Assembly: GCA_026014875.1 (NCBI GenBank)
Contig: JAOZHO010000037.1
Location: 359,819 to 423,818, forward strand
DNA length: 64,000 nucleotides
Origin: Candidatus Bathyarchaeota archaeon
Lineage (GTDB): Archaea > Thermoproteota > Bathyarchaeia > TCS64
Direction: 5' to 3'
Positions 11,890-63,251 of the stretch are shown here, in pieces. Position numbers and translations under genes: made by a program. How positions within the stretch are numbered: the stretch's first letter is position 1; the number at the start of each line of letters is the position of its first letter. Below the pieces are notes generated by a model. The model was not told where the DNA came from, made no database searches, and saw only the letters and a program-made list of their open reading frames with translations.

Positions 11890-11891
11890 CT

Positions 11892-47199: not shown

Positions 47200-47285
47200 A
47201 TCCAGTTTCCTCCACCTTTTTTTCGGAGGATACAACCTGTGAATAGTCGTCTGCCTATCCAAAGATGCCAAGAGACGCTTCGGGC

Positions 47286-47942
47286 TCAGACGAAAACGAT
47301 CTCCCATAAACCCTTGATCTCATCGATGATATAGTCAGGTTTCGAGTCAGCGAGAACCCCTGCATCATAGAATCCCGTGGCAACAGCCACGGTGAATACG
47401 CCGGCCCCTTTACCCGCTGCAAGGCCCGTCGGCGAGTCCTCCACTAGGACCGCCTCATGGGGCTCCACTCCCAGGGCGTCGAGGGCGAGGAGAATCATCT
47501 CGGGGCTCGGCTTGGGGCTCGAGACGTCGTCGTATCCGACGATGAGGTCGAAGTATCCGTCTATCCCGAGGTGGGCGAGGATCTTCTCCGCCTCCGGCGT
47601 CGACTTGTTGGTAGCCAGGCACTGCTGGAGGCCCTCGTCCTCGAAGTGGGTGAGGGTCGCCTCCACGCCGTCGAGGATGCGGGCATGATCCAGGGAGACA
47701 TCCATGAAGACCTCCCGATACCTCTTGAAGCATCCCTCGATTATGCCCCATCTCTCCGGGGAGAGAACCCTCCGATACATCTCGTCGAGGGGGACCCCGA
47801 CCATGGACCGGATCTCCTCGTCGCTGCGCGGCGCCTCACCGGCGTCCCTGAGGGCGGCGTTGAACGAGAGGCAGATGGCGTCGCTGGTGTCGACGAGGAC
47901 CCCGTCCAGATCGTAGATGATGAGGCGGATACCGGCGAGCAT
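47286..47942 (-). CDS. HAD-superfamily hydrolase (phosphoglycolate phosphatase-like, subfamily IA)
   Basis: Motif I DxDGVL(V)D at the N-terminus; cap and core domains. Confidence 0.85.
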   Translation of the reverse strand: MLAGIRLIIYDLDGVLVDTSDAICLSFNAALRDAGEAPRSDEEIRSMVGVPLDEMYRRVLSPERWGIIEGCFKRYREVFMDVSLDHARILDGVEATLTHFEDEGLQQCLATNKSTPEAEKILAHLGIDGYFDLIVGYDDVSSPKPSPEMILLALDALGVEPHEAVLVEDSPTGLAAGKGAGVFTVAVATGFYDAGVLADSKPDYIIDEIKGLWEIVFV

Positions 47943-48010
47943 ACTCCATCTGAGATTCCCCGGGATTTAACATCTGAGCCCCGTGGATAATATTTTAACC
48001 CGGGGGAGGA

Positions 48011-48415
48011 GTGAGGATGAGAATCAGGATGAACGCCCCCACATTCGACCACGTATTAATCGTCGCCCGCGACCTCGAGCGCTCGATCGAGTTCTACACT
48101 CTCATCGGTTTCGAGCACCTGGAGACCATTGAGAGGCCCAACGACAGGGTCGCCGTGATGCGCCTCGGCGGCGTCAAGATCGAGCTCATGAACCTCCCCG
48201 AGGGTAAGGAGACCCTGAGGAAACCCAGGAGGCTCACGGACCTCGGGTTCAGACACATCGGATTCAAGGTCGACGACCTCACCGCGGTCTACGAGAGGTT
48301 GAAGGACAAGATCGGCTTCGACTCTCCGCCGAGGAAGATAGCGGGCAGGGGGAACCGGATGACGGTCTTCTTCAAGGACCCCGACGGGGTCGAGATGCAC
48401 TTCGTCCAGGAATGA
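48011..48415 (+). CDS. VOC family (glyoxalase/bleomycin-resistance/dioxygenase fold) protein
   Basis: Paired beta-alpha-beta-beta-beta modules (FDHVLIVARDLERS ... GFRHIGFKVDD); probable start at the internal MNAPTF. Confidence 0.75.
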   Translation: MRMRIRMNAPTFDHVLIVARDLERSIEFYTLIGFEHLETIERPNDRVAVMRLGGVKIELMNLPEGKETLRKPRRLTDLGFRHIGFKVDDLTAVYERLKDKIGFDSPPRKIAGRGNRMTVFFKDPDGVEMHFVQE

Positions 48416-48473
48416 TCCCGGGCCTCATCCCTAAAGGTTAAGCGCCCCTCCCGCAATTCTATTTCCGGTTAAG

Positions 48474-50246
48474 ATGCCGGAAGATTATGATATCCTGATC
48501 AAGAATGCCTCGATAGTGGACGGGACGGGAGCCCCTGCCTATAGAGGCGCCCTGGCGGTCAAGGGGGATCGCGTTGCGGCCCTGGGGAAGGTGGAGGGGG
48601 ACCTAAAGGCGGACGCCGAGACCATCATCGACGGGGAGGGGCTCGTGGCCAGCCCCGGGTTCATCGACGTCCACAACCACGGGGACCTGAGCATTCTCTA
48701 CTACCCCGAGGCCGAGGGCTTCCTCCGCCAGGGGATAACCACATTCGTGGGGGGCCAGTGCGGGGACAGCCCCGGCCCCTTCGGGGAGTACATCGGGCTC
48801 CCCTGGGTCCTCAGCGACCTCTACTATGACCTCGCCCCCACGATGTATGACAGGGAGTGGCTAATCCCCCGGGAGCTCCTCAACCCGAGGCACAGGGAGC
48901 TCTTCGGCTGGGAGATCGACTGGAACACCATGGGCGAGTTCTTCAAGAGGGTCGAGGCGAAGGGCTTGAGCCCCAACTTCGCCCCGCTTGTGGGCCAGGG
49001 GGATGTCAGGGGCCTAGTGATGGGCCCCGACTTCGAGCGGGAGGCCACACGGGACGAGATCAGCGAGATGGTGGTCCACGTCGAGAGAGCCATGGAGGAC
49101 GGTTGCATCGGGATCAGCGTCGGCCGGGACTACGATCCCGGGATCTGGGCAAGTTTCGACGAGCTCCTCGCCTGCGCCGAGGCCGCCGCCAAGCACGGGG
49201 GCGTCTATGCGAGCCACTGCCTCCGCACGGGCCACAGGAAGTCCCGGAGGCCCGGTGAGTTCCCCCCGGTAAAGACCGAGGGGCTCTTGGAGGCCATCGA
49301 CATCGGGAGGAAGGCGGGGATGTCTGTCCAGGTCTCCCACCTCGGCGTTCTTTACGACGTCAGGCCCGGCGGGTGCGACTTCATGACCGAGGCGGCCGTG
49401 AAGGCCACCCTCAAGATTATCGATGACGCTCGGGAGGAGGGGATCGATGTCAGTTTCGATGAGATACCCAACCATACCGCCGGGGGGATTGGGACCACCC
49501 CATGGCTTGTGAGCTATCTCACGCCGTGGCTAAGAGTGGCGGGTGGCCTCGGGCAGCTCGTGGAGGCTTTAAGGATGGAGGATTTCCGGGAGGAGATCAA
49601 GGAGGTCATCTGGGCCGGGATGCACTATGGGCTCAACCCCAACATCAACGAGGGCTGGGCGAAGCAGCGCACCATCGTGGAATGCAAGGAAGAGAGCTTC
49701 GTGGACAAGACCCTGGCGGAGATAGCGGAGGAACTCGGCATGGACGAGCTCGATGCCCTATTCATAGTCGTCTCGACGGACCCGGAGGCGAAGGCCGTTA
49801 GGAAGGGGGGCAACGAATGGGTGAAGTTCATGTTCTACCAGCACCCCCAGGCAATGATCGGCATCGACACCTTCGCAGTTGACGACAAGCGGATCAGCAG
49901 GCACCCCCCCTGGGGACTGCCCAACGAGAACAGCTACGGGGGCTTCCCCCGGTACCTCCGGCAGGCCTACAGGGAGTCGGGGACCCTCAGCCTCGAGGAG
50001 GCCATCAGGAAGGTGACGAGCCTCCCCGCGAAAAAGTTCAATCTCCGGGGCAGGGGAGTATTGAAGGAGGGAGCCTACGCCGACATCGTGGTCTTCAACC
50101 CCGAGACTGTCACCGATAAAGGGGACCAGCTGAATCCTCGGCAGTACCCGGAAGGGATTGAGCATGTCATCGTGAACGGCGTCCAAGTCGTGAAGGGCTC
50201 GGCGCACACGGGGGCCAAGCCCGGGAAGATCCTGTATCGGGAGTAG
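48474..50246 (+). CDS. N-acyl-D-amino-acid deacylase (D-aminoacylase) family amidohydrolase
   Basis: IKNASIVDGTG ... PGFIDVHNHGD metal-dependent amidohydrolase signature and D-aminoacylase length. Confidence 0.8.
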   Translation: MPEDYDILIKNASIVDGTGAPAYRGALAVKGDRVAALGKVEGDLKADAETIIDGEGLVASPGFIDVHNHGDLSILYYPEAEGFLRQGITTFVGGQCGDSPGPFGEYIGLPWVLSDLYYDLAPTMYDREWLIPRELLNPRHRELFGWEIDWNTMGEFFKRVEAKGLSPNFAPLVGQGDVRGLVMGPDFEREATRDEISEMVVHVERAMEDGCIGISVGRDYDPGIWASFDELLACAEAAAKHGGVYASHCLRTGHRKSRRPGEFPPVKTEGLLEAIDIGRKAGMSVQVSHLGVLYDVRPGGCDFMTEAAVKATLKIIDDAREEGIDVSFDEIPNHTAGGIGTTPWLVSYLTPWLRVAGGLGQLVEALRMEDFREEIKEVIWAGMHYGLNPNINEGWAKQRTIVECKEESFVDKTLAEIAEELGMDELDALFIVVSTDPEAKAVRKGGNEWVKFMFYQHPQAMIGIDTFAVDDKRISRHPPWGLPNENSYGGFPRYLRQAYRESGTLSLEEAIRKVTSLPAKKFNLRGRGVLKEGAYADIVVFNPETVTDKGDQLNPRQYPEGIEHVIVNGVQVVKGSAHTGAKPGKILYRE

Positions 50247-50304: not shown

Positions 50305-52839
50305 GTGAGTGAAATGTCCAAATTAACCTCTCCCGAGGAGTTCTTCGGCTTCCAGATGGGGAGCGACCGGAAGATTGCGCGCTGGGAAAAAGTCGTCGAG
50401 TACTTTTACCTGCTCCAAGACCAGAGCGGAAAGATAAGGGTCACCGACATGGGCCCCAGCACCGAGGGGGAACCCTTCCTAGAGGTGGTCATCACATCCC
50501 CCGAGAACCTGGCGAATCTGGAGAATCTGAGGGAGATCAACCTCAAGATCAGCGACCCCCGAGGCCTAACCGAGGAGGAGGTCAAAGATCTCCTGTCCAA
50601 GGCGAAGGCCGTGGTCTGCCAGTCCATGAGCCTCCACGCCTCGGAGATCGGGGGCACCCAGATGGCCCCGGAGCTCGCCTACGACCTCCTCAGCCGGGAG
50701 GACGAGGAGACAGCGAGGATACTCGAGAACGTCATCTTCGTGATGGTGCCCTGCTTCAACCCCGACGGCCTGAACATGACCGCCGACTGGTACAACGGCA
50801 CGCTGAGCACCGAGTACGAGGGCGTCATGATGCCCTGGCTCTACCACAAGTACGCGGGCCACGACAATAACCGGGACGCCTTCCAGACCAACCTCCAGGA
50901 GTCCAAGTACGTCGCCGAGATCCTGTTCACGAAATGGATCCCCCAGGCCTACGTCGACCACCACCACATGGGGAGCTACGGCGCAAGGTTCTACATCCCG
51001 CCCTACTGCGAGCCCTTCCGGCCTACCGCCGACCCCCTGGTCTACAGGGAGCACGCGTGGTACGGGGCTCACCAGGCGTACATGCTTGAGGAGGCGGGCA
51101 AGACGGGGATCATCGGGGGGGCGATGCCCTTCCCGGCCTGGGGCCACTTCGGATGGCACAGGATCACCAACCACCACAACATCTCGGGGATGCTCACCGA
51201 GTCTGCGAGCGCCAAGCTTGCGACGCCACTTTACATTCACCCCGACCAGCTGGTGGGGGGCCATTACAGTTTCCCCGACTATGAGGCTCAGGTCAACTTC
51301 CCCAACCCGTGGGAGGGGGGCTGGTGGACCCTCAGGGAGATCGTGGAGCAGCAGAAGATCTGCTCCTGGGCAACGCTGGACATCGCCGCCCGGTACAAGG
51401 ATATGGTGCTCAGGAACGCTTACCTCAAGGCGAAGAGGCAGATTGAACGGGGAGCGGCCTCCAAGACGAAGGCCTACGTCATGCCCAGTTCACAGCACGA
51501 CCCCGTCACGGCGGGGAGGCTCATAGAGAAGCTCCTCGTCCAGGGCATCGAGATCCATATCGCAAACAAGGACTTCTCAGCGGGCGCCGTCATGTATCCG
51601 TCGGGCTCCTATGTCATCAAGCTCGACCAGCCCAAGTACGGCGTCATAAAGTCGCTTCTAGGCAGGACTTTCTATCCTGATAACGCCTGGACCCGGGATC
51701 AGGACGGGACCCCGAGGAGGCCCAAGGACAAGGGGGCCGACGTGATGAGCGAGTTCATGGGGGTCAGAGTCGACCCTGTGAAGTGTGCTTTCGAGGCCGA
51801 CTTGCCCAAGATAGCGGCACCCGCATGGCCGGTAGGCGGTGTGGAGGGTGAATCGGAGATCGGCTATGCTCTGGATCCCCGCCTCAACGACAGCTTCGTG
51901 GCAGTGAACAAGCTGCTCTCTGATGGAGCGCGGGTCTGGCGTTCAGCGGATCCGTTGGACGGCGGAGACGTGTGCCTCCCCCCGGGGGCTTTCGTCATAA
52001 AGGGTGTCGGGAGAGACAAACTCGAACAGGTCGCCGCGGACACGCATGTTGCGTTCCTTCCTTTATCCGAGGAAACAACTTCTACCACTCAAGTCAGCGC
52101 ACCGCGGATCGGCCTATTCCAGCGCTACTACGGAGGTAACGCCGATGAAGGATGGACGAGACTTGTGCTTGAGCAGTTCGGCTTCCCATACACCAAGGTG
52201 ATGGACGAGGACATCAAGGGAGGCGGGCTCGCAGACAAATACGATGTCATAATCATACCCAACGATTCCGAGGCCATGATCACGGGCGAGGGACTCGAGG
52301 AATACGCGAAGGCCAGGGGACGCCCCCTACCCGACTTCCCCCCGGAATACAGGAGCGGGCTGGGAACGGAGGGCGTCGAATCCCTTCGAGAGTTCGTGAG
52401 ATCGGGGGGTAGGCTCGTGTGCCTGAACGCCTCAAGCGAGTTCGCGATTGACGCCTTCAACCTGAAAATCAGGAACGTCCTGAAGGGCCTCGATCGGAAG
52501 GAGTTCTTCTGCCCGGGATCTACACTCCACGCAGACATCGACACAGGCCACTCATTGGGATACGGCATGCCAGCGGAGGGCCTCGTCTTCCACTGGGACA
52601 GCCTCGCCTTCGAGGTCCTCCCCTCCGGGGAGAACGACCGCTACGATGTCGTCGTGAGCTACGGGGAGAGGGCCCTCTTGGAGAGCGGCTGGCTGATCGG
52701 AGAGAAGCATCTGAGGAGGAGGCCCGCGATGGTAGTCGCCCGGGTGGGCGAGGGAGAAGTGGTGCTCTTCGGCTTCAGGCCCCAGCACAGGGCTCAGACC
52801 CATGGGACCTATAAGCTGTTCTTCAACAGCCTCCTCTGA
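50305..52839 (+). CDS. large M14 family zinc carboxypeptidase with C-terminal class-I-glutamine-amidotransferase-like domain
   Basis: HASEIGG (HxxE) zinc site, NPDG motif and a later His. The C-terminal about 250 aa resemble a GATase1/ThuA-like domain (DVIIIPNDSEAM...SGGRLVCLNASSEFAI). Confidence 0.75.
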   Translation: MSEMSKLTSPEEFFGFQMGSDRKIARWEKVVEYFYLLQDQSGKIRVTDMGPSTEGEPFLEVVITSPENLANLENLREINLKISDPRGLTEEEVKDLLSKAKAVVCQSMSLHASEIGGTQMAPELAYDLLSREDEETARILENVIFVMVPCFNPDGLNMTADWYNGTLSTEYEGVMMPWLYHKYAGHDNNRDAFQTNLQESKYVAEILFTKWIPQAYVDHHHMGSYGARFYIPPYCEPFRPTADPLVYREHAWYGAHQAYMLEEAGKTGIIGGAMPFPAWGHFGWHRITNHHNISGMLTESASAKLATPLYIHPDQLVGGHYSFPDYEAQVNFPNPWEGGWWTLREIVEQQKICSWATLDIAARYKDMVLRNAYLKAKRQIERGAASKTKAYVMPSSQHDPVTAGRLIEKLLVQGIEIHIANKDFSAGAVMYPSGSYVIKLDQPKYGVIKSLLGRTFYPDNAWTRDQDGTPRRPKDKGADVMSEFMGVRVDPVKCAFEADLPKIAAPAWPVGGVEGESEIGYALDPRLNDSFVAVNKLLSDGARVWRSADPLDGGDVCLPPGAFVIKGVGRDKLEQVAADTHVAFLPLSEETTSTTQVSAPRIGLFQRYYGGNADEGWTRLVLEQFGFPYTKVMDEDIKGGGLADKYDVIIIPNDSEAMITGEGLEEYAKARGRPLPDFPPEYRSGLGTEGVESLREFVRSGGRLVCLNASSEFAIDAFNLKIRNVLKGLDRKEFFCPGSTLHADIDTGHSLGYGMPAEGLVFHWDSLAFEVLPSGENDRYDVVVSYGERALLESGWLIGEKHLRRRPAMVVARVGEGEVVLFGFRPQHRAQTHGTYKLFFNSLL

Positions 52840-52925
52840 CCCCCCCCTTTCTGTTGATACGATTCCTTTTTTGGGAATCTGAAATTTTTTATCATCCGGC
52901 AACCTATCTCCATCCGGTGTTCTGA

Positions 52926-53189
52926 ATGGCATGGAAGGAGCCGGTGTTCGTCGCTAAGGTGGAGTCCATCAAAAAGAACTGCAGCGCAGGCCACGAGGTG
53001 GGCGACACATTCCAGATCAACACCCACGAGACAGGCGGCCTCTGCGGATGGTGCTACCACGACCTCTTCCCGACGCTGATGACCCTAGCGATGGACGGGA
53101 AGATACCCTGGCAGGACTCCGACGAGTGGACCTACGAATGCCCCGACCGCTACAACCTGGTCACATTCAACATCAAGAGGAAAAAGTAG
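52926..53189 (+). CDS. TIGR04076-family small protein
   Basis: 87 aa with conserved C..GH.VGD.F and CPD motifs; intact. Confidence 0.6.
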   Translation: MAWKEPVFVAKVESIKKNCSAGHEVGDTFQINTHETGGLCGWCYHDLFPTLMTLAMDGKIPWQDSDEWTYECPDRYNLVTFNIKRKK

Positions 53190-53210
53190 GCCTCACACAC
53201 GGTCGCGTGC
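52965..53210 (+). repeat. direct repeat copy A (3' two-thirds of the TIGR04076 gene plus about 25 bp downstream)
   Basis: About 85% identical to 56078..56324, e.g. ggccacgaggtgggcgacacattccagatcaacacccacgag vs ggccacaaggcgggcgacacatcccaaatcaacacccacgag. Confidence 0.7.
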
Positions 53211-53385
53211 AAGCGGATCAATTAAGGTAGAAGTGCAAAGGACAGGAATTCACTGCTCCCTTCATCCTATCACAAGAGGAGGGAGTACGGATCTCCCATA
53301 AACTCAATGAATTTGTTAATCTGCCGGCGCGTAAAGATTGCACGGAAGATGGCTCTATCTGTGTTGGAGAGCGCACGCGAGAAGA

Positions 53386-53459
53386 GTGCCATATAGACTA
53401 GTTTGTAATACAAACCTATTTATATGGCACACGCACATTAGCGTCCGATGAATATGGCA
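53386..53459. promoter_or_regulatory. nested palindromic operator overlapping a TATA-like box just upstream of the island's first gene
   Basis: GTGCCATATA (53386..53395) ... TATATGGCAC (53421..53430) encloses the inner palindrome GTTTGTA-A-TACAAAC (53401..53415). A third ATATGGCAC copy lies at 53451..53459 across the ATG; TTTATAT sits about 25 nt upstream of the ATG. Confidence 0.45.
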
Positions 53460-54092
53460 CCATCGTTCGACGGGAAGGAACTGGAGCGCGAAGTGTTCTT
53501 AGACTCCACCAAGGATGGCTTAGGGGAGCTCTTACTTGGCGTCAGCATGATCGGCGTCGCAGCGGCCTCAGCCTCCCTCTTCTTTTTACCCCTCTTCATA
53601 ATACCCCTAGTCTTTGGGGGACGCATCGCGGAGGCGGTGAGGAAGCGCCTCACCTACCCTAGGATCGGCTATGTGAAGTTGAGGGGGGAGCAGACAGGCA
53701 AAGCTCTTGGAGGCGTGCTCCTCTACGAGTTCCTCGTTCTCCTGGTTTTTGCAATTGCCCTGTACATACTTTTCGGGGATATCATGGAATTCAGCCTCTG
53801 GGCCAGATGGTCGCCTCTGATAACCGCGCTGCTAATTCTCGGCCTCTTCCTCAATTTACATGATAAATCTGGTAACAAACGTTACCTGGCCCTCGCAGTC
53901 CTGTCTGTGTTTGTAGGACTCGTTTTATCATTTGTCAGCTTCGATATCTCTTTCCCGTATCTATTCGGCTATTTCGACTCCGGGGTGGTTTTCTACTTCT
54001 TCCTGATGGGGAGCGTCATGCTATCCAGTGGCTTAATTCAGTTCGTCTATTTCCTCAACCGGAATCCAGTCTCCCCGGAGGATCGAGACTAG
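53448..54092 (+). CDS. polytopic membrane protein of unknown function
   Basis: 5-6 predicted TM segments, no motif; lower GC (about 53%). Confidence 0.6.
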   Translation: MNMAPSFDGKELEREVFLDSTKDGLGELLLGVSMIGVAAASASLFFLPLFIIPLVFGGRIAEAVRKRLTYPRIGYVKLRGEQTGKALGGVLLYEFLVLLVFAIALYILFGDIMEFSLWARWSPLITALLILGLFLNLHDKSGNKRYLALAVLSVFVGLVLSFVSFDISFPYLFGYFDSGVVFYFFLMGSVMLSSGLIQFVYFLNRNPVSPEDRD

Positions 54093-54415
54093 TGTCAGAG
54101 CCAGAGACCAACGACATCAGCAGTCCCATAATGGGGATTGACAGGCTTATCCATGAACCGGCGAGGTTCAGCATCATGGCTAATCTCTATGTCGTAGAGG
54201 AGGCTGACTTCCTATTCCTGTCTCGTCGCATAGGTCTAACGCGGGGCAACCTGTCGGCTCACATGAGGAAACTGGAAGAGGGAGGCTATATCGAGGTGCG
54301 GAAAGGGTTCATGGGTCGTAGGCCCCACACTGTGCTTGCCATCACCGAAAAAGGCCAAGAAGCTTTCAAGAATTATGTATCCGATATAAAAAACGCCCTT
54401 CAAGGGTTTGAATAA
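54092..54415 (+). CDS. winged-helix transcriptional regulator
   Basis: GLTRGNLSAHMRKLEEGGYIEVRKGF is a classic wHTH recognition helix/wing. GTG start overlapping the upstream stop by 1 nt. Confidence 0.65.
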   Translation: MSEPETNDISSPIMGIDRLIHEPARFSIMANLYVVEEADFLFLSRRIGLTRGNLSAHMRKLEEGGYIEVRKGFMGRRPHTVLAITEKGQEAFKNYVSDIKNALQGFE

Positions 54416-54432
54416 GCGGATGTGATGAAAGG

Positions 54433-55896
54433 ATGATTAAAACGATTTTTGAAAGAAAAGGTCTCGCGGAATATTCATTGCTCGCAGTGTTTCTGGTAAT
54501 TAGCTTACTCTCTTCTTTCCCATCTGCTTCGGCTCTGAATCAAGAGACAATCTCACGCAGAGACCTAGTGATAGACCTTGGAGACGGATTGACTACGGAT
54601 GCTCAGTTGACTTTCCCCGCTGTTGGGGATGGTCCTTTCCCAGGTGTTCTCCTCATACACGGCTCCGGCAATACGGATATGGATGAATATCTTCCTTCCC
54701 TGGTTACCGGTACAGGGGAGCCCTCAAGGCCCTTTCTCCAGATAGCGGATTATCTATCGGAGAGAGGTTTCGCGGTATTACGATATAATAAAAGAGGCGT
54801 CGGTCTGAAAGGCGTTATTTTAGATGTAAACATTGTTGTGAATACTACATTCGAATATCTCCTGCAAGATGCTGAGAAGGCTCTTGAAACCCTCATGCAG
54901 CAACCGGAAGTAGACGCAACTGACGTTTCAATACTTGGCCACAGTGAGGGAACATGGATTGCTCCTAGAATCGCAATCAAAGACACCAGGATTAAGAAGA
55001 TTGTCCTCATGAGTGCAGGGGCTCATAACCTCTACGATATTCTTCATTTCCAGATTGTGGAGCAACGCATTAGTGAATTCGAAGAAATTGACGGAAATAA
55101 CGATGGATTGTGGTCCATACAAGAAGTATCTGTTTTACCCCTGATACAGAGAGACGCTTTTATTGAGAACAGCACCGGAGACTGGATGTGGAGACCTGGA
55201 GTCGATCCGAATGGAGACGGTTACATCAGCCTCGTTGAGGAAATGTTACCTCTTTGGAACCAGATTTTTGAATATCTCACTACAGCAGAGTATCCAGGCT
55301 CAAAATGGTACCAATCACACTTTGCTCTTGAAAATAACCTGGAAATCATAGGCAATGTTTCTGAGGGTATACTGATTCTCCAAGGAGAAGAAGATACTCA
55401 GACACCCGTTTTTGAAGCCCATTTTCTAGACCAGAGGCTGATGGAGGTCGGGCATCATGATCATACTTTGATCACCTATCCTGGCCTTGGGCACTCCTTC
55501 TACCCCAAGGAAGGCCTGTTGCAATGGTTGGGCCCAATACAGGATCATGTTCTATCCGATCTCGCCACCTGGCTGAAAGACCCTGAGAGGGACCGATTCC
55601 TCTTAGTTGAACAGCTTCAAACCGCATCAAACACGATAAATGAACTGCAAGGCCAACTGACTGACTTAAATTCCGAGTTCAATCAGCAAACCAGCGAGCT
55701 AGAGAACCAAGTCTCCGAACTGCAGTCAGAATCAACGGATATGCATAATACCGTCACCGAGCTAGAACGCCAAACTATGGCATTACAGTCAGCCCTGGAT
55801 TCAGCTGAGAACATGACCAACATCGCCCTTGGAGTTGCATTGATAGCCATCATATCTGGAGCCGTAATCATATTTCAGAACCGGAACAGAAATTGA
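54433..55896 (+). CDS. secreted/surface-anchored alpha/beta-hydrolase-fold serine hydrolase with coiled-coil stalk and C-terminal TM anchor
   Basis: N-terminal signal/TM, HGSGNTDMDE, nucleophile elbow LGHSEGTW (GxSxG). C-terminal heptad-rich stretch (NELQGQLTDLNSEFNQQTSELENQVSELQSE...) then hydrophobic anchor IALGVALIAIISGAVIIF. About 45% GC. Confidence 0.65.
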   Translation: MIKTIFERKGLAEYSLLAVFLVISLLSSFPSASALNQETISRRDLVIDLGDGLTTDAQLTFPAVGDGPFPGVLLIHGSGNTDMDEYLPSLVTGTGEPSRPFLQIADYLSERGFAVLRYNKRGVGLKGVILDVNIVVNTTFEYLLQDAEKALETLMQQPEVDATDVSILGHSEGTWIAPRIAIKDTRIKKIVLMSAGAHNLYDILHFQIVEQRISEFEEIDGNNDGLWSIQEVSVLPLIQRDAFIENSTGDWMWRPGVDPNGDGYISLVEEMLPLWNQIFEYLTTAEYPGSKWYQSHFALENNLEIIGNVSEGILILQGEEDTQTPVFEAHFLDQRLMEVGHHDHTLITYPGLGHSFYPKEGLLQWLGPIQDHVLSDLATWLKDPERDRFLLVEQLQTASNTINELQGQLTDLNSEFNQQTSELENQVSELQSESTDMHNTVTELERQTMALQSALDSAENMTNIALGVALIAIISGAVIIFQNRNRN

Positions 55897-55902
55897 AGGC
55901 AT

Positions 55903-56085
55903 ATGAAAATCATGGTCAAAACGGATGACCTGTCCAAATATTACGGCAAAGGAGGCGAGACCAAGGCCGTGGATGGTAATCGTCCCCGTGCCGGGTGGGC
56001 TTCTACTGGGCCAATCAATGCTGGCGGTGAGTGCAGGATTGCTATCCTCTACCTCGGGGCGAGAAAGCTCAGAAACATCGAATAA
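55903..56085 (+). pseudogene. N-terminal fragment of an ABC-transporter ATPase gene
   Basis: MKIMVKTDDLSKYYGKGGETKAVDG matches ABC NBD N-termini (..V.NLSK.YG......ALD.); the Walker A region is scrambled across frames. Confidence 0.5.
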
Positions 56086-56324
56086 AAAACGAGGGCGCAC
56101 TCAGGCCACAAGGCGGGCGACACATCCCAAATCAACACCCACGAGACCGGAGGCCTCTGTGGATGGTGCTACCACGACCTCTTCCCCACCCTCATGACCC
56201 TGACGATGGACGGCAAGATCCCCCGGCAGGACCCCGCAGAATGAACCTTCGAGCGCCCCGACCACATCAACCGAGCAACCTTCGCCATCAAGAGGAAAAA
56301 GCAGGCCTCACACACAGTCACGCG
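56078..56324 (+). repeat. direct repeat copy B (decayed duplicate of the TIGR04076 3' segment)
   Basis: Matches 52965..53210; repeats A and B bracket the low-GC island. Confidence 0.7.
56088..56300 (+). pseudogene. TIGR04076-family gene fragment with in-frame stop
   Basis: Reads GHKAGDTSQINTHETGGLCGWCYHDLFPTLMTLTMDGKIPRQDPAE* where the intact copy has ...QDSDEW (tgg to tga). Lacks the first 16 codons or so. Confidence 0.65.
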
Positions 56325-56329
56325 AACAA

Positions 56330-56520
56330 ACCCCCCGAGCAAACCAGTAGCTATTCAGTAGCAAAACAGTTGCAAACAACACCCGAAAGCAGACAGAAAA
56401 CAACCCCAAAACCAAAATAAACCCCTAAAAACAAGCCAAAAACCACACTCCATAACAAAATATTTTTTCCAGTGCATAAGCCCTCACACTAGACCAGGGT
56501 TTAATACGCCCTACCCCCAG
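56330..56520. other. A/C-rich, strand-biased low-complexity tract without coding potential
   Basis: About 80% A+C on the plus strand (e.g. aaccccaaaaccaaaataaacccctaaaaacaagccaaaaaccacac); only spurious ORFs. Confidence 0.5.
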
Positions 56521-56631
56521 GTGCCAACGACGGCCGAATCAGAGCAGCACCACACCTACACGAAGGAATCCAGAGGCTGCAATAGATGCACCCTCGACGG
56601 GAACCCCAACCGCAAGTTCAAGAAGATGCCG

Positions 56632-57015
56632 TCAAGCATCCGTTGCCCAATGGCCGTGGAGGTTGCAGAACTCCCTGGCCCCAAGGACCTTCTCGCCCGT
56701 GGTGAAGGCTGCCACCGGCTTCTCCCCCGGGTTCAGGAACCTGCGCAGGACGCCGTCCTCGGTGTCCAAGGCGATCCACTCGATCCAGTGACCCTCCATC
56801 ATGGGGTGATCAACGCTCCCCACATTCACCGAGTAAGTGTCGCCACTCCTCTCGATGACGGGAAGATGCTTCTCATAGCCCCCCTCCTCGGTGCGCTTAG
56901 CCACGAGGAGAATCATAGGCTGGTTGCAACAGACCAGCTGCCCCACGCCAGTGTGGAGGACCTCCACTATGTTGCCGCAGACCTCACACTTCCAGACCTG
57001 ACTTCTCTCAGTCAT
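56632..57015 (-). CDS. dfx: desulfoferrodoxin (2Fe superoxide reductase)
   Basis: N-terminal desulforedoxin-like CEVCGN...GQLVCC plus the C-terminal neelaredoxin His/Cys site (HWIEW ... CNLHGHW). Confidence 0.85.
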   Translation of the reverse strand: MTERSQVWKCEVCGNIVEVLHTGVGQLVCCNQPMILLVAKRTEEGGYEKHLPVIERSGDTYSVNVGSVDHPMMEGHWIEWIALDTEDGVLRRFLNPGEKPVAAFTTGEKVLGAREFCNLHGHWATDA

Positions 57016-57143
57016 ATCAACCAGTGGAGGAAAGCCAACCGCGTTATATAATTGTTAACAGTTAAGAGAGTAAGATCAAACCTAGCTAGACGATACGGTA
57101 TCGATGCGAATCACGCATCTTCTCGGTTATAACCAAAAAGCCA

Positions 57144-57320
57144 TCATTTGCTGCTATCAACATAGGGGCTGATGCTGATGCCACCACTCGCAAAGACCAG
57201 CTTCCGATTGCACTTGGGGCAGCGCCCATCAAATTTCTTGATGATGTCTTGAGGGGACTTCAGTATGTCTCCCTCGTAGAGAAGATGGTTGCACTCGGCG
57301 CAGGTCACTTTCTGTGGCAT
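57144..57320 (-). CDS. small C4 zinc-ribbon protein
   Basis: 58-aa ORF below the track threshold: MPQKVTCAECNHLLYEGDILKSPQDIIKKFDGRCPKCNRKLVFASGGISISPYVDSSK; two CxxC pairs. Confidence 0.4.
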   Translation of the reverse strand: MPQKVTCAECNHLLYEGDILKSPQDIIKKFDGRCPKCNRKLVFASGGISISPYVDSSK

Positions 57321-57486
57321 TTATACGTCCCGGATATCAAGCGAGAGACCTACATTAAAGGGTTCTTAACACAAGGTCTGGAATAAGGATACTTGAAAAA
57401 CCCATATATCTTGGAGGTTACATGTTAACATCCTTGAAAGGAGGCAGCGAGCGATCCCATCCATCGGTGAACGGCTTAACAGATTC

Positions 57487-57870
57487 TTGGACGGCTTCAG
57501 CAAGGGAAAACGAGGGTTACCGAGGATCTCCCCCACGGTCGTGTCAATCCTCATGATCCTGTTCACAGCCTTCATCGCCGGCGGCGGCATCTACGACCTC
57601 CTAGACAACCCCCCCTCCTTATACCCCGTGGGCACCAGGTGGGTGGCAGTCCACCCCTACCAAGGGGAGCAGACAATAAACGAGAGCATCGTGAGCATGA
57701 CCCTCACCCTCTTCATGGTGGGAGGGCTCATAGTCTCATACAAAAGCGCCAAGGTATCAAACGACTCCAAGAGAGCCAACACGATGCTCATCATCGGCAT
57801 CTCCCTGATCCTCATGGGCCTCGCGGGAAGCCACTACCTCCTCATACTCAAGAGGACTATCGGGCGCTAG
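57487..57870 (+). CDS. small membrane protein (3 TM) of unknown function
   Basis: Hydrophobic segments; no motif recognised. Confidence 0.5.
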   Translation: MDGFSKGKRGLPRISPTVVSILMILFTAFIAGGGIYDLLDNPPSLYPVGTRWVAVHPYQGEQTINESIVSMTLTLFMVGGLIVSYKSAKVSNDSKRANTMLIIGISLILMGLAGSHYLLILKRTIGR

Positions 57871-57918
57871 GCAAAAAGGTTTAACGACTGGAACCGGAAT
57901 TATTCCCCGGTGTAACCT

Positions 57919-58803
57919 TTGAAAAAGATTGGATTCATAGGGCTGGGTCTCATGGGCCGAGGGATGTCCATGAACCTGGTGAAGGCCGGATTCCCCGTCA
58001 CGGTCTGGAACAGGACCGCCTCAAAGATGGACCCCCTGGTCGAGGCCGGGGCGAAAGCCGCAGCCTCCCCCAAGGAGGTCGCCGCAGCTTCCGATATCAT
58101 AGTGAGCATCGTGACCGACTCCAGCGACGTAGAGGCGGTGATACTAGGCTCCGAAGGCGCGATCCACGGGACGAGCCCAGGAGACATCGTGATAGACATG
58201 AGCACCATCTCCCCGGCAGTGACAAAGAGCATCAACGATAAGCTCGGGGCAAAGGGAGTGAAGATGCTCGACGCCCCGGTGAGCGGCGGCTCCATCGGGG
58301 CCCGGGACGGGACCCTCAGCATCATGGTGGGGGGCGACGACGAGACATTCAAAGAGTGCCTCCCCATATTCGAGGCCATGGGGAAGACCATAACCCACGT
58401 CGGCGGAAACGGGATGGGCCAGACGGTCAAGCTCGTCAACCAGATCCTCGTGGGAACCTCAATGCTCGGGGTCGCAGAGGCTTTGATGTTCGCTAAAAAG
58501 TGTGGAGTGGACCTCGAGAAGTGCCACGCCGCTGTTTCCGGAGGGGCCGCAGGGAGCTGGCAGCTCACCAATAACGGGGCGAGGCTGCTGAAGGGTGATA
58601 TGGAGCCCGGGTTCAAGATCAAGGACTATCTGAAGGATCTGAGGCTCATCATGGAGGCCGCCGCTGACGTGAAGATGCCCCTAGTGGAGACCTCAGTGGT
58701 TCAGCAGATGTACAAGAGCCTTGAGGCGGAGGGCCTCACCCAGAAGGGCACCCAGGCCGTCATCAAGGCGGTCGAGAAGCTCGCAGGGGAGACCCTCGTC
58801 TAA
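57919..58803 (+). CDS. NAD(P)-dependent beta-hydroxyacid dehydrogenase (3-hydroxyisobutyrate/2-hydroxy-3-oxopropionate reductase family)
   Basis: GFIGLGLMG Rossmann motif and family match. TTG start at 57919 is required to include the dinucleotide fold. Confidence 0.85.
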   Translation: MKKIGFIGLGLMGRGMSMNLVKAGFPVTVWNRTASKMDPLVEAGAKAAASPKEVAAASDIIVSIVTDSSDVEAVILGSEGAIHGTSPGDIVIDMSTISPAVTKSINDKLGAKGVKMLDAPVSGGSIGARDGTLSIMVGGDDETFKECLPIFEAMGKTITHVGGNGMGQTVKLVNQILVGTSMLGVAEALMFAKKCGVDLEKCHAAVSGGAAGSWQLTNNGARLLKGDMEPGFKIKDYLKDLRLIMEAAADVKMPLVETSVVQQMYKSLEAEGLTQKGTQAVIKAVEKLAGETLV

Positions 58804-58830
58804 CCCCCCTTTTCTCAGTGGAGCGGAAGG

Positions 58831-59586
58831 ATGGAACCCACCAAAGCTTTGGTCCGGGAACCGGGCGACACCTATACCAGTTGCATCTCGTCCCACCCAC
58901 AACACCACACCGTGGACCTGAACAAGGCAAGAGCACAGCACGCCAGATACTGTGACGTACTTGCAGACCTCGGGCTAGAAGTGATACGCGTCCCCCGGGA
59001 CGACCAACACCCGGACGCCTGCTTCGTCGAGGACAACGCCGTGGTACTCGGAGACAAGGCTCTCATCTGCAGAATGGCCAAGGAAAGCAGGCGAGGCGAG
59101 CAGCCTGGAGTGGCCGCAGTCCTCGAGGAATACGTAAAGATCAAGTGGGCTGAGGCCCCCGCTACCATCGAGGGGGGCGACGTGGTTCATCTGGGGGATC
59201 GCCTCATCAGCGGAGTCACGGAAAGAACGAACCTCGAAGGCGTGTCCCAGCTGAGGGACTGGCTGGGGGTCAGGGTAGACACCATCGACGACCCGGGTAT
59301 AATGCATCTAAAGAGCTACGTCACCAGCCTCGGAGGAGGCAGGGTGATCGCGACCAAGACATACGCGAGGCATCCAGCCCTCGAGGGGCTGGAGGTTCTA
59401 GTGATCCCAGAGGAGGAGGAGTACGCGGCGGACACCCTGACTGTAGGAGACACGGTACTGATGCCAGCAGGATACCCCCGCTCCCACGAGATGGTGAGAG
59501 CAGCGGGTTACGAGGTCATCCCCATGGACGTGGGAGAGATCGAAAAGTGTGACGGGGCGCTGACCTGCCTCTCCATCCTTTTTTAG
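58831..59586 (+). CDS. dimethylarginine dimethylaminohydrolase (DDAH)-like amidinotransferase-superfamily enzyme
   Basis: Pentein fold with the C-terminal catalytic Cys in ...CDGALTCLSILF. Confidence 0.75.
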   Translation: MEPTKALVREPGDTYTSCISSHPQHHTVDLNKARAQHARYCDVLADLGLEVIRVPRDDQHPDACFVEDNAVVLGDKALICRMAKESRRGEQPGVAAVLEEYVKIKWAEAPATIEGGDVVHLGDRLISGVTERTNLEGVSQLRDWLGVRVDTIDDPGIMHLKSYVTSLGGGRVIATKTYARHPALEGLEVLVIPEEEEYAADTLTVGDTVLMPAGYPRSHEMVRAAGYEVIPMDVGEIEKCDGALTCLSILF

Positions 59587-60092
59587 ATATCCGCTGCGCG
59601 CGCAGGAGCAGACGGGGGCTCCGGCACCTTCGCCTCTTTCCGGGCCTCTAGATAAGCGAACACCGCCTCGACCATCCTAAGAGCGACGGTGAGAGCGGTC
59701 AGCTGCACCAAGAACCTGAAGTCGAGGGTGATAGCGTTGACGCTCCCCTGGACCTCCACCGTCATCGAGGTCAGCCCCAGATTCCCCAGCTCCTCGAGCT
59801 TCCCGAAACTCAGCGTGACTACCGTGAAGGCGAATGTAAGTCCGCTTGAGGCGAGAGCGGCGAGGAGATAGATGGGCGAGGAGGGGGCAACGAAACCCTT
59901 CACGAGGGTCAGCGCGGCGACGGCCACGCCCATGATAGCGAGCTGGTTGACGAAGGACGGGACATCGATCCCCGTCCGGGCCAACGTCTCTATGTATGAG
60001 GGGGGCAGATATTGTGGAGCCATTAATGGTATAACGGTGAAGAGGAGGAGCGTGATCGCAGCGGAGACCAGTGCGCCCGTCCTATTACTCAT
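59583..60092 (-). CDS. polytopic membrane protein of unknown function
   Basis: 4 TM; 4-bp overlap with the upstream gene. Confidence 0.5.
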   Translation of the reverse strand: MSNRTGALVSAAITLLLFTVIPLMAPQYLPPSYIETLARTGIDVPSFVNQLAIMGVAVAALTLVKGFVAPSSPIYLLAALASSGLTFAFTVVTLSFGKLEELGNLGLTSMTVEVQGSVNAITLDFRFLVQLTALTVALRMVEAVFAYLEARKEAKVPEPPSAPARAADI

Positions 60093-60547
60093 CCTTGAAC
60101 CCCCTGAGGAATGGTGATGGTGTCAGAAATTCCAACGAGGTCGAACAAAGTTCTGAGACCCAAGAACAGCTCAATGGAGCTCTCGCCCCCAAGCGCTATC
60201 CTCTCATAATCTTCCCGAGAGACCTCCAAGACCAGAGAGATAGTCTCGTAGCTCCCCGGGGCAAGTGCCGCTGAGGAGGAATCGCTCGCAACTGCCACGC
60301 CGTCACCGTCCAGTAGTTTGAGCCCTAGTGTGATGTCAGCGTCGAGATAACCTGTGTTCTGGGGAGTCACCTCGAGTCGGAGGGAACCTACGCCTGTTGT
60401 TTCGTCAAAGTCCATCTCAAAACCGAGGCCTCCACTGAATGTGGACGAGAGGACGCCGTAGATGCTGTATATGGAGAGCCCGAACGCCGCTAGGGAGACG
60501 ATCTGAGTGATCATTATCAGTAGAGCGATTATTTTAGTGGTTTTCAA
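60089..60547 (-). CDS. N-terminally membrane-anchored protein with beta-rich extracytoplasmic domain, function unknown
   Basis: Single N-terminal TM followed by a Gly/Ser/Thr/Asp-rich domain. Confidence 0.5.
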   Translation of the reverse strand: MKTTKIIALLIMITQIVSLAAFGLSIYSIYGVLSSTFSGGLGFEMDFDETTGVGSLRLEVTPQNTGYLDADITLGLKLLDGDGVAVASDSSSAALAPGSYETISLVLEVSREDYERIALGGESSIELFLGLRTLFDLVGISDTITIPQGVQG

Positions 60548-60696
60548 ATAAATCCCTTGAATTGACCCTGACCTCGCCGGATTAAAGCATGATGGTCGGG
60601 GCTCTTCCGCTCCGAACTCTCAATGAGCATGGAACATGGATTCCCATGATAGCTGCCGCTATGTTGAAAGAAGGAAAAAAGTATTCGCCCTCCGAC

Positions 60697-60915
60697 TTAC
60701 TCAGTCGGGGCGTAGTAGCATCTCTTGGGGGAGTGGATCTTCCCTTCTTTCTTGAGGACCTTGATGGCCTTGGAGACCTCTTTGCTCTCGATCCCCAGAG
60801 CCTTGGCGACCTCGCCGGGGCGCACGGGCTTCCCGGCGTCCTTCATGGCCTGAAGAACCGCTTCAACTTGCTCACTCATCGAATCACCTTGATTATGTGC
60901 AAAAGGTAAGGTCAA
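60697..60915 (-). CDS. small winged-helix DNA-binding protein
   Basis: PVRPGEVAKALGIESKEVSKAIKVLKKEGKI is a typical wHTH; probable start at the internal MSEQ (60879). Confidence 0.5.
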   Translation of the reverse strand: MTLPFAHNQGDSMSEQVEAVLQAMKDAGKPVRPGEVAKALGIESKEVSKAIKVLKKEGKIHSPKRCYYAPTE

Positions 60916-60975
60916 ATGAGTTATTAATAAACTTCCAGTCAGGCGATCGGTTATCTACTGAAAAAGAAAAGGGGG

Positions 60976-62751
60976 TTAGGGGGTCCTTCTGAGGACCCGG
61001 CCAGGGGTTGCTCCTGTGTGCTTGCCTTTCTCGACCACTACTTCGCCGTTCACGAACACGTAATCGATGCCCTCGGGATGTCTCCGGGTCTCGATCTCGT
61101 CGCTGAGGATCTTCAGTTTCGGGAGGTCCATCAGGACGATGTCCGCGTATCCGCCCTCTTTGAGAACCCCTCGGCCCTCGAGGTTATGGACCCTCGCTGG
61201 AAGCGTCGAGGTCTTCTGCACAGCCTCCTCCAGGGTGAAGAGGCTGCCGTCCCTGACGTATTTGATGTAGAACATCGGGTAGGCGCTGAAGGTGTTGATG
61301 CCGGGGATGCTGTAGGGAGGATTCTTGGACTGCCACTCGGTGTCAAAGACGCCTGTGTCGAGGCCCACCATGCCCTTGGGGTGAGTCCAATAGTGGAGGT
61401 AGGGGGTTCTCGGCCCCATCGAGCCTGTGGCTCCCCGTGTGAAGGGGTCCTCGCCGATGATATCGAAGTAGGTGTCCCAAGGATCAGCATCCCGCTCCCC
61501 TGCGATCTCGGCTATGGTCTTACCGTCAATGTCAGGCACCTCGCTCTTCAAGACCATGATGTTCTCCGCCCATCGGGGAGCGGTGTTTGGGTTGTAGGCG
61601 ACCCTGATGAACCACTTCCCGGTCCGGATGGCTTCCTTCACCTCCTCCCGGAAATCCTTCACCTTGAGCCATTTCCCGAGGCCCTCGAGGCCACCGAGCT
61701 CCCTGAGCCAGGGAGCGTAAAGGGATGCGAGATAGGGCATCGTGGCGAATCCGCTCCTCGTCAGCTGGGGTATCGCGTCCCAGGTGATGTCGAGCTCGGA
61801 CTTGGAGTCGGCGGTGATCATGTTGAGGGTAGTCTTAACGTTGGCCTCCTCGAGCTCATCGGGCGCCGAGGGGTGGATCTGCCATCCCGTCGATATGTGG
61901 GCGTAGTGGAGGCGGACCCCGGTCTTCTGGTGAACATCGACGCACTCCATGAGGGCGGTGATCTTCTCGTTGGGGACGTGGCCAGCGGAGACGCCCCTCC
62001 TCCGGCCCGTGCGCCTCCAATGGGGGCAGTAGACTCCCTCGTAGTCCTTGAGCACAGTGACCCCGTCGATGATCTCCTCGTGCGCTGCGTATACGTCGGG
62101 GTCGTAGTCGAGACCTGTGCTCATCCCGAGGCAGCCCTGCTTCATCGCCTCGTGGATGAGATCCCTCATCTCGGCCCATTCCTCCTTCGTGCTGTGGCGC
62201 TTGTAGTCGAGGCCCATCACTTTGGTCCTGACGGTGCCGTGGCCCACGAGGGGGGCGTAGTTCATCGAGACGCCGACCGCCTCAACCTTCTTGAAGTATC
62301 CCGCCATGTCTTCCCAGTCCAGGGTCCAGCCGTAGATCTCTGCCATCCATTCGTTTGCCTGCTCCAGTGGGTAGTAGGGCTGCTTCGGGTAGAACTTGAA
62401 AGGATCGAGGTCGGGGAGGCGATCCATTAGAGGCCAGGGCAGCCTGATGTGCTCACCGAGGGGTGCGGGCGACCCCCCGCATTGCCCACCCACGAAGGTG
62501 GTGACCCCCTGCATGATGTAACTCTCAGCCTTGGGGAACCAGAGAAGGGTCCAGTCAGCGTGGCTGTGAGCGTCAATGAAGCCAGGCGTAGCGGTGAGAC
62601 CCTTCGCATCTACCATCCTTTTAGCGTCGCCCTTGACATCGCCCAAGGCGACTACCTTGTCTCCCTGGACTCCAACGGAGCCTTCGTATGCCTTCTTTCC
62701 CGTTCCATCCACTATGTTTGCATTTTTGATGAGAACGTCGTATTCTACCAT
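60976..62751 (-). CDS. N-acyl-D-amino-acid deacylase (D-aminoacylase) family amidohydrolase, second paralogue
   Basis: Paralogue of 48474..50246 (IKNANIVDGTG ... PGFIDAHSHAD). Confidence 0.8.
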   Translation of the reverse strand: MVEYDVLIKNANIVDGTGKKAYEGSVGVQGDKVVALGDVKGDAKRMVDAKGLTATPGFIDAHSHADWTLLWFPKAESYIMQGVTTFVGGQCGGSPAPLGEHIRLPWPLMDRLPDLDPFKFYPKQPYYPLEQANEWMAEIYGWTLDWEDMAGYFKKVEAVGVSMNYAPLVGHGTVRTKVMGLDYKRHSTKEEWAEMRDLIHEAMKQGCLGMSTGLDYDPDVYAAHEEIIDGVTVLKDYEGVYCPHWRRTGRRRGVSAGHVPNEKITALMECVDVHQKTGVRLHYAHISTGWQIHPSAPDELEEANVKTTLNMITADSKSELDITWDAIPQLTRSGFATMPYLASLYAPWLRELGGLEGLGKWLKVKDFREEVKEAIRTGKWFIRVAYNPNTAPRWAENIMVLKSEVPDIDGKTIAEIAGERDADPWDTYFDIIGEDPFTRGATGSMGPRTPYLHYWTHPKGMVGLDTGVFDTEWQSKNPPYSIPGINTFSAYPMFYIKYVRDGSLFTLEEAVQKTSTLPARVHNLEGRGVLKEGGYADIVLMDLPKLKILSDEIETRRHPEGIDYVFVNGEVVVEKGKHTGATPGRVLRRTP

Positions 62752-62870
62752 TTGATCTCAATTAGGAGATTCCCCTTTAGACGATTTAACAATGTTTCTT
62801 GACAATTGGGGTCAAAGGGCTAGAGGAACTATCAGAAGCGTGCAGCAGGATCCGTGTGTCAGTGAGCTTT

Positions 62871-63251
62871 TCAGAAGCCGTTCCTTTCCTTGAGCTCTTC
62901 ACGATAGATCTTTTTGTAGACAGCTTCCCACTTATCGTCCTGAAGCTTCTCCGATATCTCCCTCATGATGTCTCTGAACGCCTTTTTCTGGGCCTCGTCC
63001 TCGTATTTGTAGTATATCCTGGAGAGGTCAGCCCACACCTCCTCCTTGACCTCGTCTGGGTCTACCTCGGAGGAGGGGAGGATCTTTGAGATCATCTCCC
63101 GGATCGCCCCTTTCAGGGCGTCCAAGGGTTCTGATGTGGTCATTGTCTTACCTTTTCGGGTCTCGGGGCTTCGATTTAAGGGTTTATCATTATCGTTGAG
63201 GATATTATGTAGCGATTTCAGTTTTCTTTGTCCCATCTGGGAAAGTATCAT
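62871..63251 (-). CDS. hypothetical helical protein
   Basis: Charged, helical, lower GC (about 48%); start possibly at the internal MTTSEPLD. Confidence 0.4.
   Translation of the reverse strand: MILSQMGQRKLKSLHNILNDNDKPLNRSPETRKGKTMTTSEPLDALKGAIREMISKILPSSEVDPDEVKEEVWADLSRIYYKYEDEAQKKAFRDIMREISEKLQDDKWEAVYKKIYREELKERNGF

Follow-up and report, generated by a model that had tools for sequence, protein, structure and literature searches.

Integrated elements that are flanked by direct repeats of a target gene's 3' end are found in both bacteria and archaea; classically, they lie at tRNA genes and carry an integrase. Campbell-type integration, a single crossover of a circular molecule with the chromosome, is known mainly from laboratory constructs and from plasmid integration. 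Here we describe a small islet (about 3.1 kb) in the genome of a Candidatus Bathyarchaeota archaeon (GenBank assembly GCA_026014875.1). The islet lies in a 64,000-nucleotide stretch of contig JAOZHO010000037.1 (positions 359,819 to 423,818 of the forward strand), which we will call the window and to which unlabelled coordinates refer. It holds three genes, for a membrane protein, a regulator, and a hydrolase, between two copies of the 3' part of a small gene of the TIGR04076 family. We think it likely that the region is a horizontally acquired insertion, with duplication of its target, in a Bathyarchaeia chromosome.

The islet resembles the integrase-type islands in its foreign composition, in having a target gene that is entered at the 3' end and stays intact, in the displaced 3' end that forms the distal repeat, and in the empty-site alleles of relatives. 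Unlike those islands, it is only about 3.1 kb, it lacks an integrase, and its target is a small protein-coding gene. Furthermore, its repeat is 221 bp long and matches the gene of the local clade, there is no short att core, and the same cargo occurs elsewhere without an att-like copy. Thus, of the hallmarks of an integrative element, the direct repeats at a 3' end and the empty site in relatives are present, while a recombinase gene is absent. The more general signs of an acquired islet, which are atypical composition and the same DNA in unrelated contexts, are both present. Integron cassettes share with our locus a promoter-proximal site beside a fixed gene, alternative cargo among strains, and short recurring motifs after stop codons. 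However, the islet has no IntI-type integrase and no structured attC-like site, the motif is a (GC)3-4 tract, and the cassette carries its own putative promoter and a regulator. Campbell-type integration predicts the product that we see: cargo between two homologous copies, of which one completes the gene and the other is truncated.

An initial annotation had reported an island of low GC content between imperfect direct repeats of about 245 bp, derived from the TIGR04076 gene. The bracketing by repeats is correct, and comparison to related sequences refines the cargo unit to 53331–55900, with a 123-bp spacer on its left and a 205-bp segment on its right. The parts of the locus are:

52926..53189, + strand: intact TIGR04076-family gene (NCBIfam TIGR04076), 87 amino acids, the insertion target

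52987..53207, no strand: direct repeat copy A, with TIGR04076 codons ~21–87 (the 3' two-thirds) and ~20 nt past the stop codon

53208..53330, no strand: non-coding spacer of 123 bp between copy A and the cassette, ending in GGCGCG

53331..55900, + strand: three-gene cassette, probably acquired horizontally, 2.57 kb and 47.9% GC, delimited by homology to contigs L171–L173

55897..56101, + strand: 205-bp segment between the cassette and copy B, the N-terminal part of a chimeric open reading frame (ORF) that is fused to copy B

56102..56322, + strand: copy B of the direct repeat, which is the 3' part of TIGR04076 that was displaced and that is now, in this genome, a pseudogene

The repeats are real and highly significantly similar. 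By blastn, 52987–53207 and 56102–56322 align over 221 nt without gaps, at 83.7% identity (E = 7.7e-65), and this is the only such match, with nothing comparable elsewhere in the 64-kb window. The identity is close to the 85% that was first reported, and the reported length was slightly generous: over some 22 nt more on the left (from 52965 / 56078), there is only a weak alignment that requires a 6-nt gap. As first described, copy A is the intact 3' end of the TIGR04076 gene. The gene's product matches positions 7–89 of the 91 positions of the NCBIfam TIGR04076 model at 54.3 bits (E = 1.5e-14; the cut-off is 33 bits). Copy B has a premature stop in the TIGR04076 frame (TGA at 56242–56244), as had also been noted. 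In addition, its natural stop codon has changed from TAG to CAG, one conserved cysteine is gone, and there is a TAA at 56083, upstream of copy B.

The cassette is 47.9% GC, as compared to 59.7% for the window; the low GC content had been noticed, against a background that was put too high, at 62%. At third codon positions, GC content is 46–66% in the three cargo genes and 80–86% in most of the flanking genes. Tetranucleotide composition gives the same picture: of 123 stretches of 2.57 kb within the window, none stands further apart than the island (distance rank 1, z = 3.8).

To compare the locus across relatives, we used contigs that were gathered by a metagenome scan with the TIGR04076 protein and by exact-protein look-ups; these contigs have L numbers. 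(In the exact-protein look-ups, the TIGR04076 protein alone was on record, at 100% identity in L001 and L002; there was no record for the window's hydrolase, M14-like peptidase, or desulfoferrodoxin.) The gene order around the islet is not common to all relatives. The island is absent from three contigs, L085 (8 kb), L086, and L087, which are 88–92% identical to the window in its flanks. In these, the M14-like peptidase gene is followed by TIGR04076 and then by a gene for a cysteine-rich membrane protein, and in L085, the longest of them, the order runs on through the desulfoferrodoxin gene (dfx) and four more genes, as in the window. The island is present in L084, which covers the left junction, and in L130 and L163, which cover the right junction.

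Two other strains have different cargo at this point. L001 tracks the window to 53330 and departs at 53331, where it has a minus-strand gene whose product ends in a coiled coil and a transmembrane anchor. L083 departs at about 53210, which is the end of copy A. (The low-GC cargo of L083 has a 28-nt direct repeat of its own, at 1385–1412 and 1564–1591, with 93% identity; the first copy lies directly after a GC tract.) Thus, the TIGR04076 locus has at least four states: empty, with this cassette, and with either of two other cargos.

The abrupt change in GC content, and the presence of a repeat at the borders, are what we would expect if the assembly had joined two organisms at a repeated sequence. 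But both junctions recur in independent assemblies from different samples (the left one in L084, the right one in L130 and L163), which rules out a chimera.

The cassette also occurs outside of this locus. In L171 and L172 (44–46% GC), it is 91.5% identical to the window's copy, with homology limited to 53331–55849, and in L173 (44% GC), it is 89.8% identical, with homology that reaches 55900. The flanks of these copies are unrelated to the window: a SnoaL-like gene lies to the left in L171, a DUF7347 gene lies to the right in L172, and a methyltransferase gene lies to the right in L173. So, the 2.57-kb cassette is found in at least three genomic contexts. Across all copies, nucleotide identity is 88–99%. 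Over about 350 bp (55017–55366), the copy from the high-GC context of L163 is 98.5–99% identical to that of the low-GC contig L173, as compared to 90–92.5% between L163 and the window. Such mosaic copies imply recent and repeated exchange.

We also considered that the region might be native and ancestral, with a functional reason for its low GC content, and that the "empty" relatives arose by deletion between the repeats. Recombination between copies A and B would give exactly the empty-site structure, and the filled and empty alleles show similar flank divergence (88–93%). However, a native origin seems inconsistent with cassette copies at 88–99% identity in contigs of 44–46% GC with unrelated neighbors, with third-position GC content that shows little amelioration towards that of the flanking genes, and with the different cargo at the same point in two other strains. 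We find a native origin scarcely credible.

If the cassette was inserted, then which copy of the repeat is in its original place? Copy B runs straight into DNA whose homolog, in the empty-site contigs, follows TIGR04076, so copy B and the DNA that follows it are the original 3' end and downstream region, and copy B has been displaced from the rest of its gene. The three available copy-B sequences are 81–93% identical to the functional TIGR04076 genes of the same clade and 67.5–81.5% identical to outgroup genes. Thus, the duplicated segment came from the local gene or from that of a close relative, not from the low-GC donor. The initial annotation had proposed acquisition by recombination or duplication at TIGR04076, with one repeat decaying, and both the empty sites of L085–L087 and the contiguity of copy B with ancestral DNA support this. 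We propose that incoming DNA would have entered the 3' part of TIGR04076 and duplicated the last ~221 bp of its target. The upstream copy would keep TIGR04076 intact, while the downstream copy, on ancestral DNA, decays.

The simplest route to exactly this product, and the most likely one, would be a Campbell-type single crossover with a circular DNA molecule, although we would put it at slightly less than an even chance. The circle would have run from the 3' part of TIGR04076 through spacer and cassette to the 205-bp segment, and the crossover would have been with the chromosomal TIGR04076. The source of the circle would be a related strain that already had the cargo immediately after TIGR04076, much as L001 and L083 have their alternative cargos. 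Microhomology at short GC tracts would have closed the circle, and the only new joint would be that between the 205-bp segment and copy B. The pattern of variable sites in copies A and B is too eroded to locate the crossover point.

Several points weigh against this interpretation. The integration mechanism is inferred from sequence and was not observed: we found no circular intermediate, and no precursor allele with the cargo but without copy B. Presence and absence alone cannot polarize the event, as recombination between the two repeat copies could also leave an empty site. (If some islands were lost in this way, the foreign origin of the cassette is unchanged.) The low-GC contigs are short (3.1–3.7 kb), and they may be islands within other genomes rather than part of the donor lineage. 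Finally, the case for a functional link among the three cargo proteins is their gene order, and the more distant homologs of the hydrolase in L164–L168 stand alone, without the regulator pair.

By blastn, the region 53190–53330, which takes in the spacer, is 93.7% identical to L084, which has the same cargo, and 87.9% identical to L001, which has different cargo. The 205-bp segment is present only in filled alleles (the window, L130, and L163), and a search for homologs of it found a single orphan of 57 amino acids. We had considered that 55903–56085 might be a fragment of an ABC-transporter ATPase, but neither the window's version nor that of L163 has a Pfam match at E ≤ 10, and the database search gave only the one orphan. 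In L163 (2029–2430), the displaced 3' end of TIGR04076 is still part of an intact chimeric ORF of 133 amino acids, with a 62-amino-acid orphan N-terminus followed by TIGR04076 residues ~22–87. The start codon of the chimeric ORF overlaps the stop codon of the hydrolase gene. In the window, this ORF is broken, and in L130, it carries a frameshift.

Could an integrase have put the islet in place? An integrative element might have entered at the 3' end of TIGR04076 and brought a substitute for that end, leaving attL- and attR-like repeats, and might have lost its integrase gene to a later deletion. The restored target gene and the displaced 3' end beyond the cargo fit this scenario, as do the other deletions and remnants at the locus. 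But there is no integrase in any of the four filled alleles or in the three copies of the cassette elsewhere, and those copies lack a TIGR04076-like att segment. Also, none of the other metagenome contigs that were recovered with the TIGR04076 query has a second TIGR04076 fragment, so TIGR04076 is not a recurrent att site across the group. Together with the lack of viral or plasmid relatives (see below), this makes an integrase-mediated origin very unlikely.

As the initial annotation had stated, there is no integrase or transposase in the island, and we found none in the neighboring ORFs that we scanned with Pfam and NCBIfam (most of the long ORFs in 45715–50246 and 56632–63251). Similarly, no integrase was called in L163, L171, L172, or L173, and the window has no tRNA gene. 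We found no relatives of the island among the viruses, plasmids, and phages of IMG/VR, PLSDB, and INPHARED. Comparison of the island's proteins to PHROGs gave just a generic esterase/lipase family and weak matches to coiled-coil or winged helix-turn-helix families, and the PADLOC models of defense systems gave only generic noise of the latter two kinds. Rfam and structured-element searches of 52700–57200 found no match.

These results also speak to other known classes of elements. An insertion sequence or transposon was rejected because there is no transposase, no inverted repeat joins the ends of the cassette or of the island, and the duplication is 221 bp. An integron cassette array was rejected because there is no integrase and no Rfam or structured-element match, and because the boundaries are simple GC tracts. 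An element derived from a provirus or plasmid was rejected because there is no homology to viral or plasmid records beyond the generic PHROGs matches.

Short tracts of alternating G and C mark most of the junctions, and they deserve a closer look. Copy A ends in GGTCGCGTG, and the corresponding site in L083 is GGTCGCGCGCGC. The GGCGCG at the end of the spacer corresponds to TGCGCGCGC in L001; the cassette ends in TGCGCGCGC in L173; and L171 and L172 carry TGCGCGCGC about 24 nt to the left of the cassette. The 205-bp segment ends in GGGCGCAC in the window, and its joint with copy B is GCGCGC in L130 and L163. Thus, tracts lie exactly at the breakpoints of L001, L083, and L173 and at the ends of copies A and B, as well as next to the left end of the cassette; in L130 and L163, a tract also marks where copy B begins on the left. 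GCGCGC(GC) tracts are found at 2457 in L001; 1379 and 1740 in L083; 1786, 2589, and 3033 in L173; 994 in L171; 9.8–14.8 kb in L164; and 32233 and 59596 in the window. As compared to expectation from base composition, the 8-mer GCGCGCGC is in excess by a factor that ranges from about 5 to about 150 among L001, L083, and L171–L173, which are short contigs, and that is about 9 and 16 in L164 and L168, in which the GC tracts are mostly intergenic. Across related archaeal contigs, 27 of 551 clusters of alignment ends are within 12 nt of a (GC)≥3 tract, versus 3.05 expected; with a control for intergenic position, whose gene calls were crude, the count is 12 versus 2.9 expected.

These observations raise the possibility that (GC)3-4 tracts are the boundaries of exchangeable cassettes in Bathyarchaeia, and that a site-specific or GC-tract-directed activity moves the cargo. 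The duplicated fragment of TIGR04076 would itself be a captured "cassette" between two GC tracts. The tracts at most of the junctions, the excess of GCGCGCGC, and the counts of alignment ends are in favor of this. However, the junction between the hydrolase's stop codon and the 205-bp segment has no tract, and GCGCGCGC is not enriched in the window (2 found versus 0.87 expected). Moreover, the analysis was post hoc, with that crude control, and the breakpoints are not independent, as homologous contigs share them. Microhomology at any short GC-rich repeat could look alike, and we know of no candidate enzyme for GC-tract-directed recombination. We therefore view the regularity as a lead, for which microhomology or hotspots that are prone to form Z-DNA are more likely explanations than a dedicated cassette system. 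We consider it unlikely that, in Bathyarchaeia, genes or small operons pass at such tracts between lineages whose GC content differs greatly, through an unrecognized recombination process (site-directed, or driven by Z-DNA or microhomology), with the TIGR04076 locus as one hotspot.

The features of the cassette itself are:

53386..53460, no strand: putative promoter/operator, with a 22-nt imperfect palindrome (53386–53407 / 53409–53430)

53448..54092, + strand: membrane protein of 214 amino acids with six predicted helices, from an uncharacterized family

54092..54415, + strand: winged-helix regulator of the HTH_34 family (PF13601), 107 amino acids

54433..55896, + strand: predicted secreted serine hydrolase of 487 amino acids (Hydrolase_4, E = 5.5e-13)

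These three genes had been described accurately: a polytopic membrane protein, a winged helix-turn-helix protein whose GTG start overlaps the upstream stop, and an anchored alpha/beta-hydrolase with a coiled-coil stalk. The initial annotation saw no obvious function for the cargo, but there is a clue in the hydrolase, whose catalytic domain resembles feruloyl esterases and PET46.

The hydrolase has a signal peptide, an alpha/beta-hydrolase domain, two EF-hand-like loops, and a C-terminal transmembrane anchor. Its score against Hydrolase_4 is 49.2 bits (the threshold is 27). In the AlphaFold2 model (pLDDT 82), the stalk is predicted to be one continuous helix, from residues 385 to 486, that ends in the transmembrane segment. 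Ser171 (in GHS171EG) and His354 are kept in all of 23 homologs, and Asp321 is kept in nearly all of them. The best match to the fold in the PDB, by Foldseek, is PET46 (8B4U; E = 7e-16, TM-score of 0.76 when normalized to PET46), followed by feruloyl esterases and TTL lipase. PET46, which is from Bathyarchaeota, is also detected by phmmer (E = 4e-6). Like PET46, bacterial feruloyl and cinnamoyl esterases, and TTL lipase, the hydrolase has a lidded alpha/beta-hydrolase catalytic domain with a Ser-Asp-His triad. However, it is only 15–19% identical to these proteins, and it has in addition the signal peptide, the two EF-hand-like loops in the lid region, the helical stalk of about 80 residues, and the transmembrane anchor. 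The family has at least 2527 homologs; those with a named source are from Bathyarchaeota, other Thermoproteota, and Asgard archaea. Judging from these features, the hydrolase is likely to be a regulated carboxyl-esterase of the cell surface, where it would cleave ester-linked substrates (similar to feruloyl esters or to lipids).

The regulator has a strong match to PF13601 (E = 2.4e-27, 95.4 bits, versus a gathering score of 27), and its nearest solved structure is PH1061 (1UB9; E = 8e-11). Its GTG start codon overlaps the TAG of the membrane protein's gene by one base (TAGTG). The membrane protein has six helices in its AlphaFold2 model (pLDDT 80) and an invariant loop motif, T-x-P-R-I-G-Y. 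It has no match in Pfam, NCBIfam, PADLOC, or PHROGs and no fold match in the PDB. Its relatives comprise 23 close clusters (three have a named source, which is either Bathyarchaeota or marine sediment) and 2085 representatives at the level of a profile search.

Pairs of a regulator and a membrane partner, such as SdpR/SdpI, offer an analogy. As in such pairs, and with a regulator of the PH1061 type of HTH_34 proteins, a regulator gene of about 100 codons directly follows and overlaps the gene for a polytopic membrane protein, and a palindrome lies upstream of the operon. But neither SdpI nor any solved fold is detectably related to the cassette's membrane protein, and the pairing is seen in this cassette only, where it is known from gene order. 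The palindrome contains a TATA-like TTTATAT and is kept in L171. Shortly after the start codon (at 53448), positions 53452–53460 hold a third half-site, ATATGGCAC. Plausibly, this is an operator for autoregulation, on a transcript that is almost leaderless. The regulator would act at the palindrome as a repressor of the operon, and the co-translated membrane protein would modulate the regulator.

To the right of the islet, the features are:

56323..56623, + strand: ancestral region downstream of TIGR04076, which holds the 5' remnant of the gene for the cysteine-rich membrane protein

56624..56631, no strand: deletion scar, at which 683 bp of L163 (2734–3416) are absent from the window and from L130

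56632..57015, − strand: desulfoferrodoxin gene (dfx), the native right flank (TIGR00320, E = 5.7e-51)

Positions 1955–2430 of the empty-site contig L085 are 77% identical to 56104–56622 of the window, and L085's desulfoferrodoxin is 91% identical in amino acid sequence. The initial annotation raised the question of whether TIGR04076 adjoins dfx in relatives. It does not: the gene for the cysteine-rich membrane protein (225 amino acids in L163), whose family has no Pfam match, intervenes, and it is intact in L085, L086, L087, and L163. In the window, its remnant at ~56527–56623 has about 32 codons, with ATG changed to ACG. By comparison with L163 and the empty-site contigs, most of the gene was taken away by a separate, later deletion of 683 bp.

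In the more distant Bathyarchaeia contig L088 (9992–11269), and also in L090, TIGR04076 is followed by a convergent gene for an Fe/Mn superoxide dismutase, which replaces desulfoferrodoxin. That this small cysteine-rich protein adjoins a superoxide-detoxifying enzyme in both clades hints at a functional link.

More broadly, the neighborhood encodes peptidases and amidohydrolases. Among species-representative genomes, the flanking M14-like peptidase (844 amino acids) matches only Bathyarchaeia (59–83% amino acid identity), and in none of those matches is TIGR04076 or dfx kept downstream of it. Over the ribosomal L1/L11 region, the window has 82% nucleotide identity to Bathyarchaeota genome CP070640.1. 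Upstream of the M14-like gene, L088 (1900–5517; also L090 and L119) has two tandem paralogs of a D-aminoacylase-like amidohydrolase, and the window has one (48474–50246). In L020, a gene for the large subunit of a terminase (Terminase_6N/6C; 10984–12396) lies downstream of an M14 relative of 73% identity, which suggests a provirus beside the M14 locus in that genome. The window has a second dip in GC content at 34815–36581 (about 51% GC, tetranucleotide z = 2.4), which is a gene for an alanyl-tRNA synthetase of 588 amino acids (tRNA-synt_2c, E = 3e-134). This atypical housekeeping gene might reflect a second transfer event.

In the literature on TIGR04076, on GCGCGC motifs in archaea, and on genomic islands of Bathyarchaeota, we came across no account of this locus. 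For Bathy-6 genomes, large regions of atypical GC content have been described, and one of these contains a provirus (PMC11697101).

The islet is otherwise an ordinary, clear case of horizontal gene transfer, and the regularity of the GC tracts is the only element that could prove to be new. Still, the locus lets us follow, nucleotide by nucleotide, a recent flow of genes between uncultured populations of Bathyarchaeia, an archaeal group that to our knowledge has no genetic system. An operon for a regulator and a putative surface esterase moved between backgrounds of 44% and 60% GC, and sediment metagenomes contain the empty and the filled allele side by side with alleles that hold other cargo. 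The islet is thus probably a natural archaeal example of insertion with target duplication, with no recombinase encoded by the element. And it marks a widespread, uncharacterized family of likely cell-anchored esterases as accessory and transferable, which bears on how archaea attack ester-linked organic matter.

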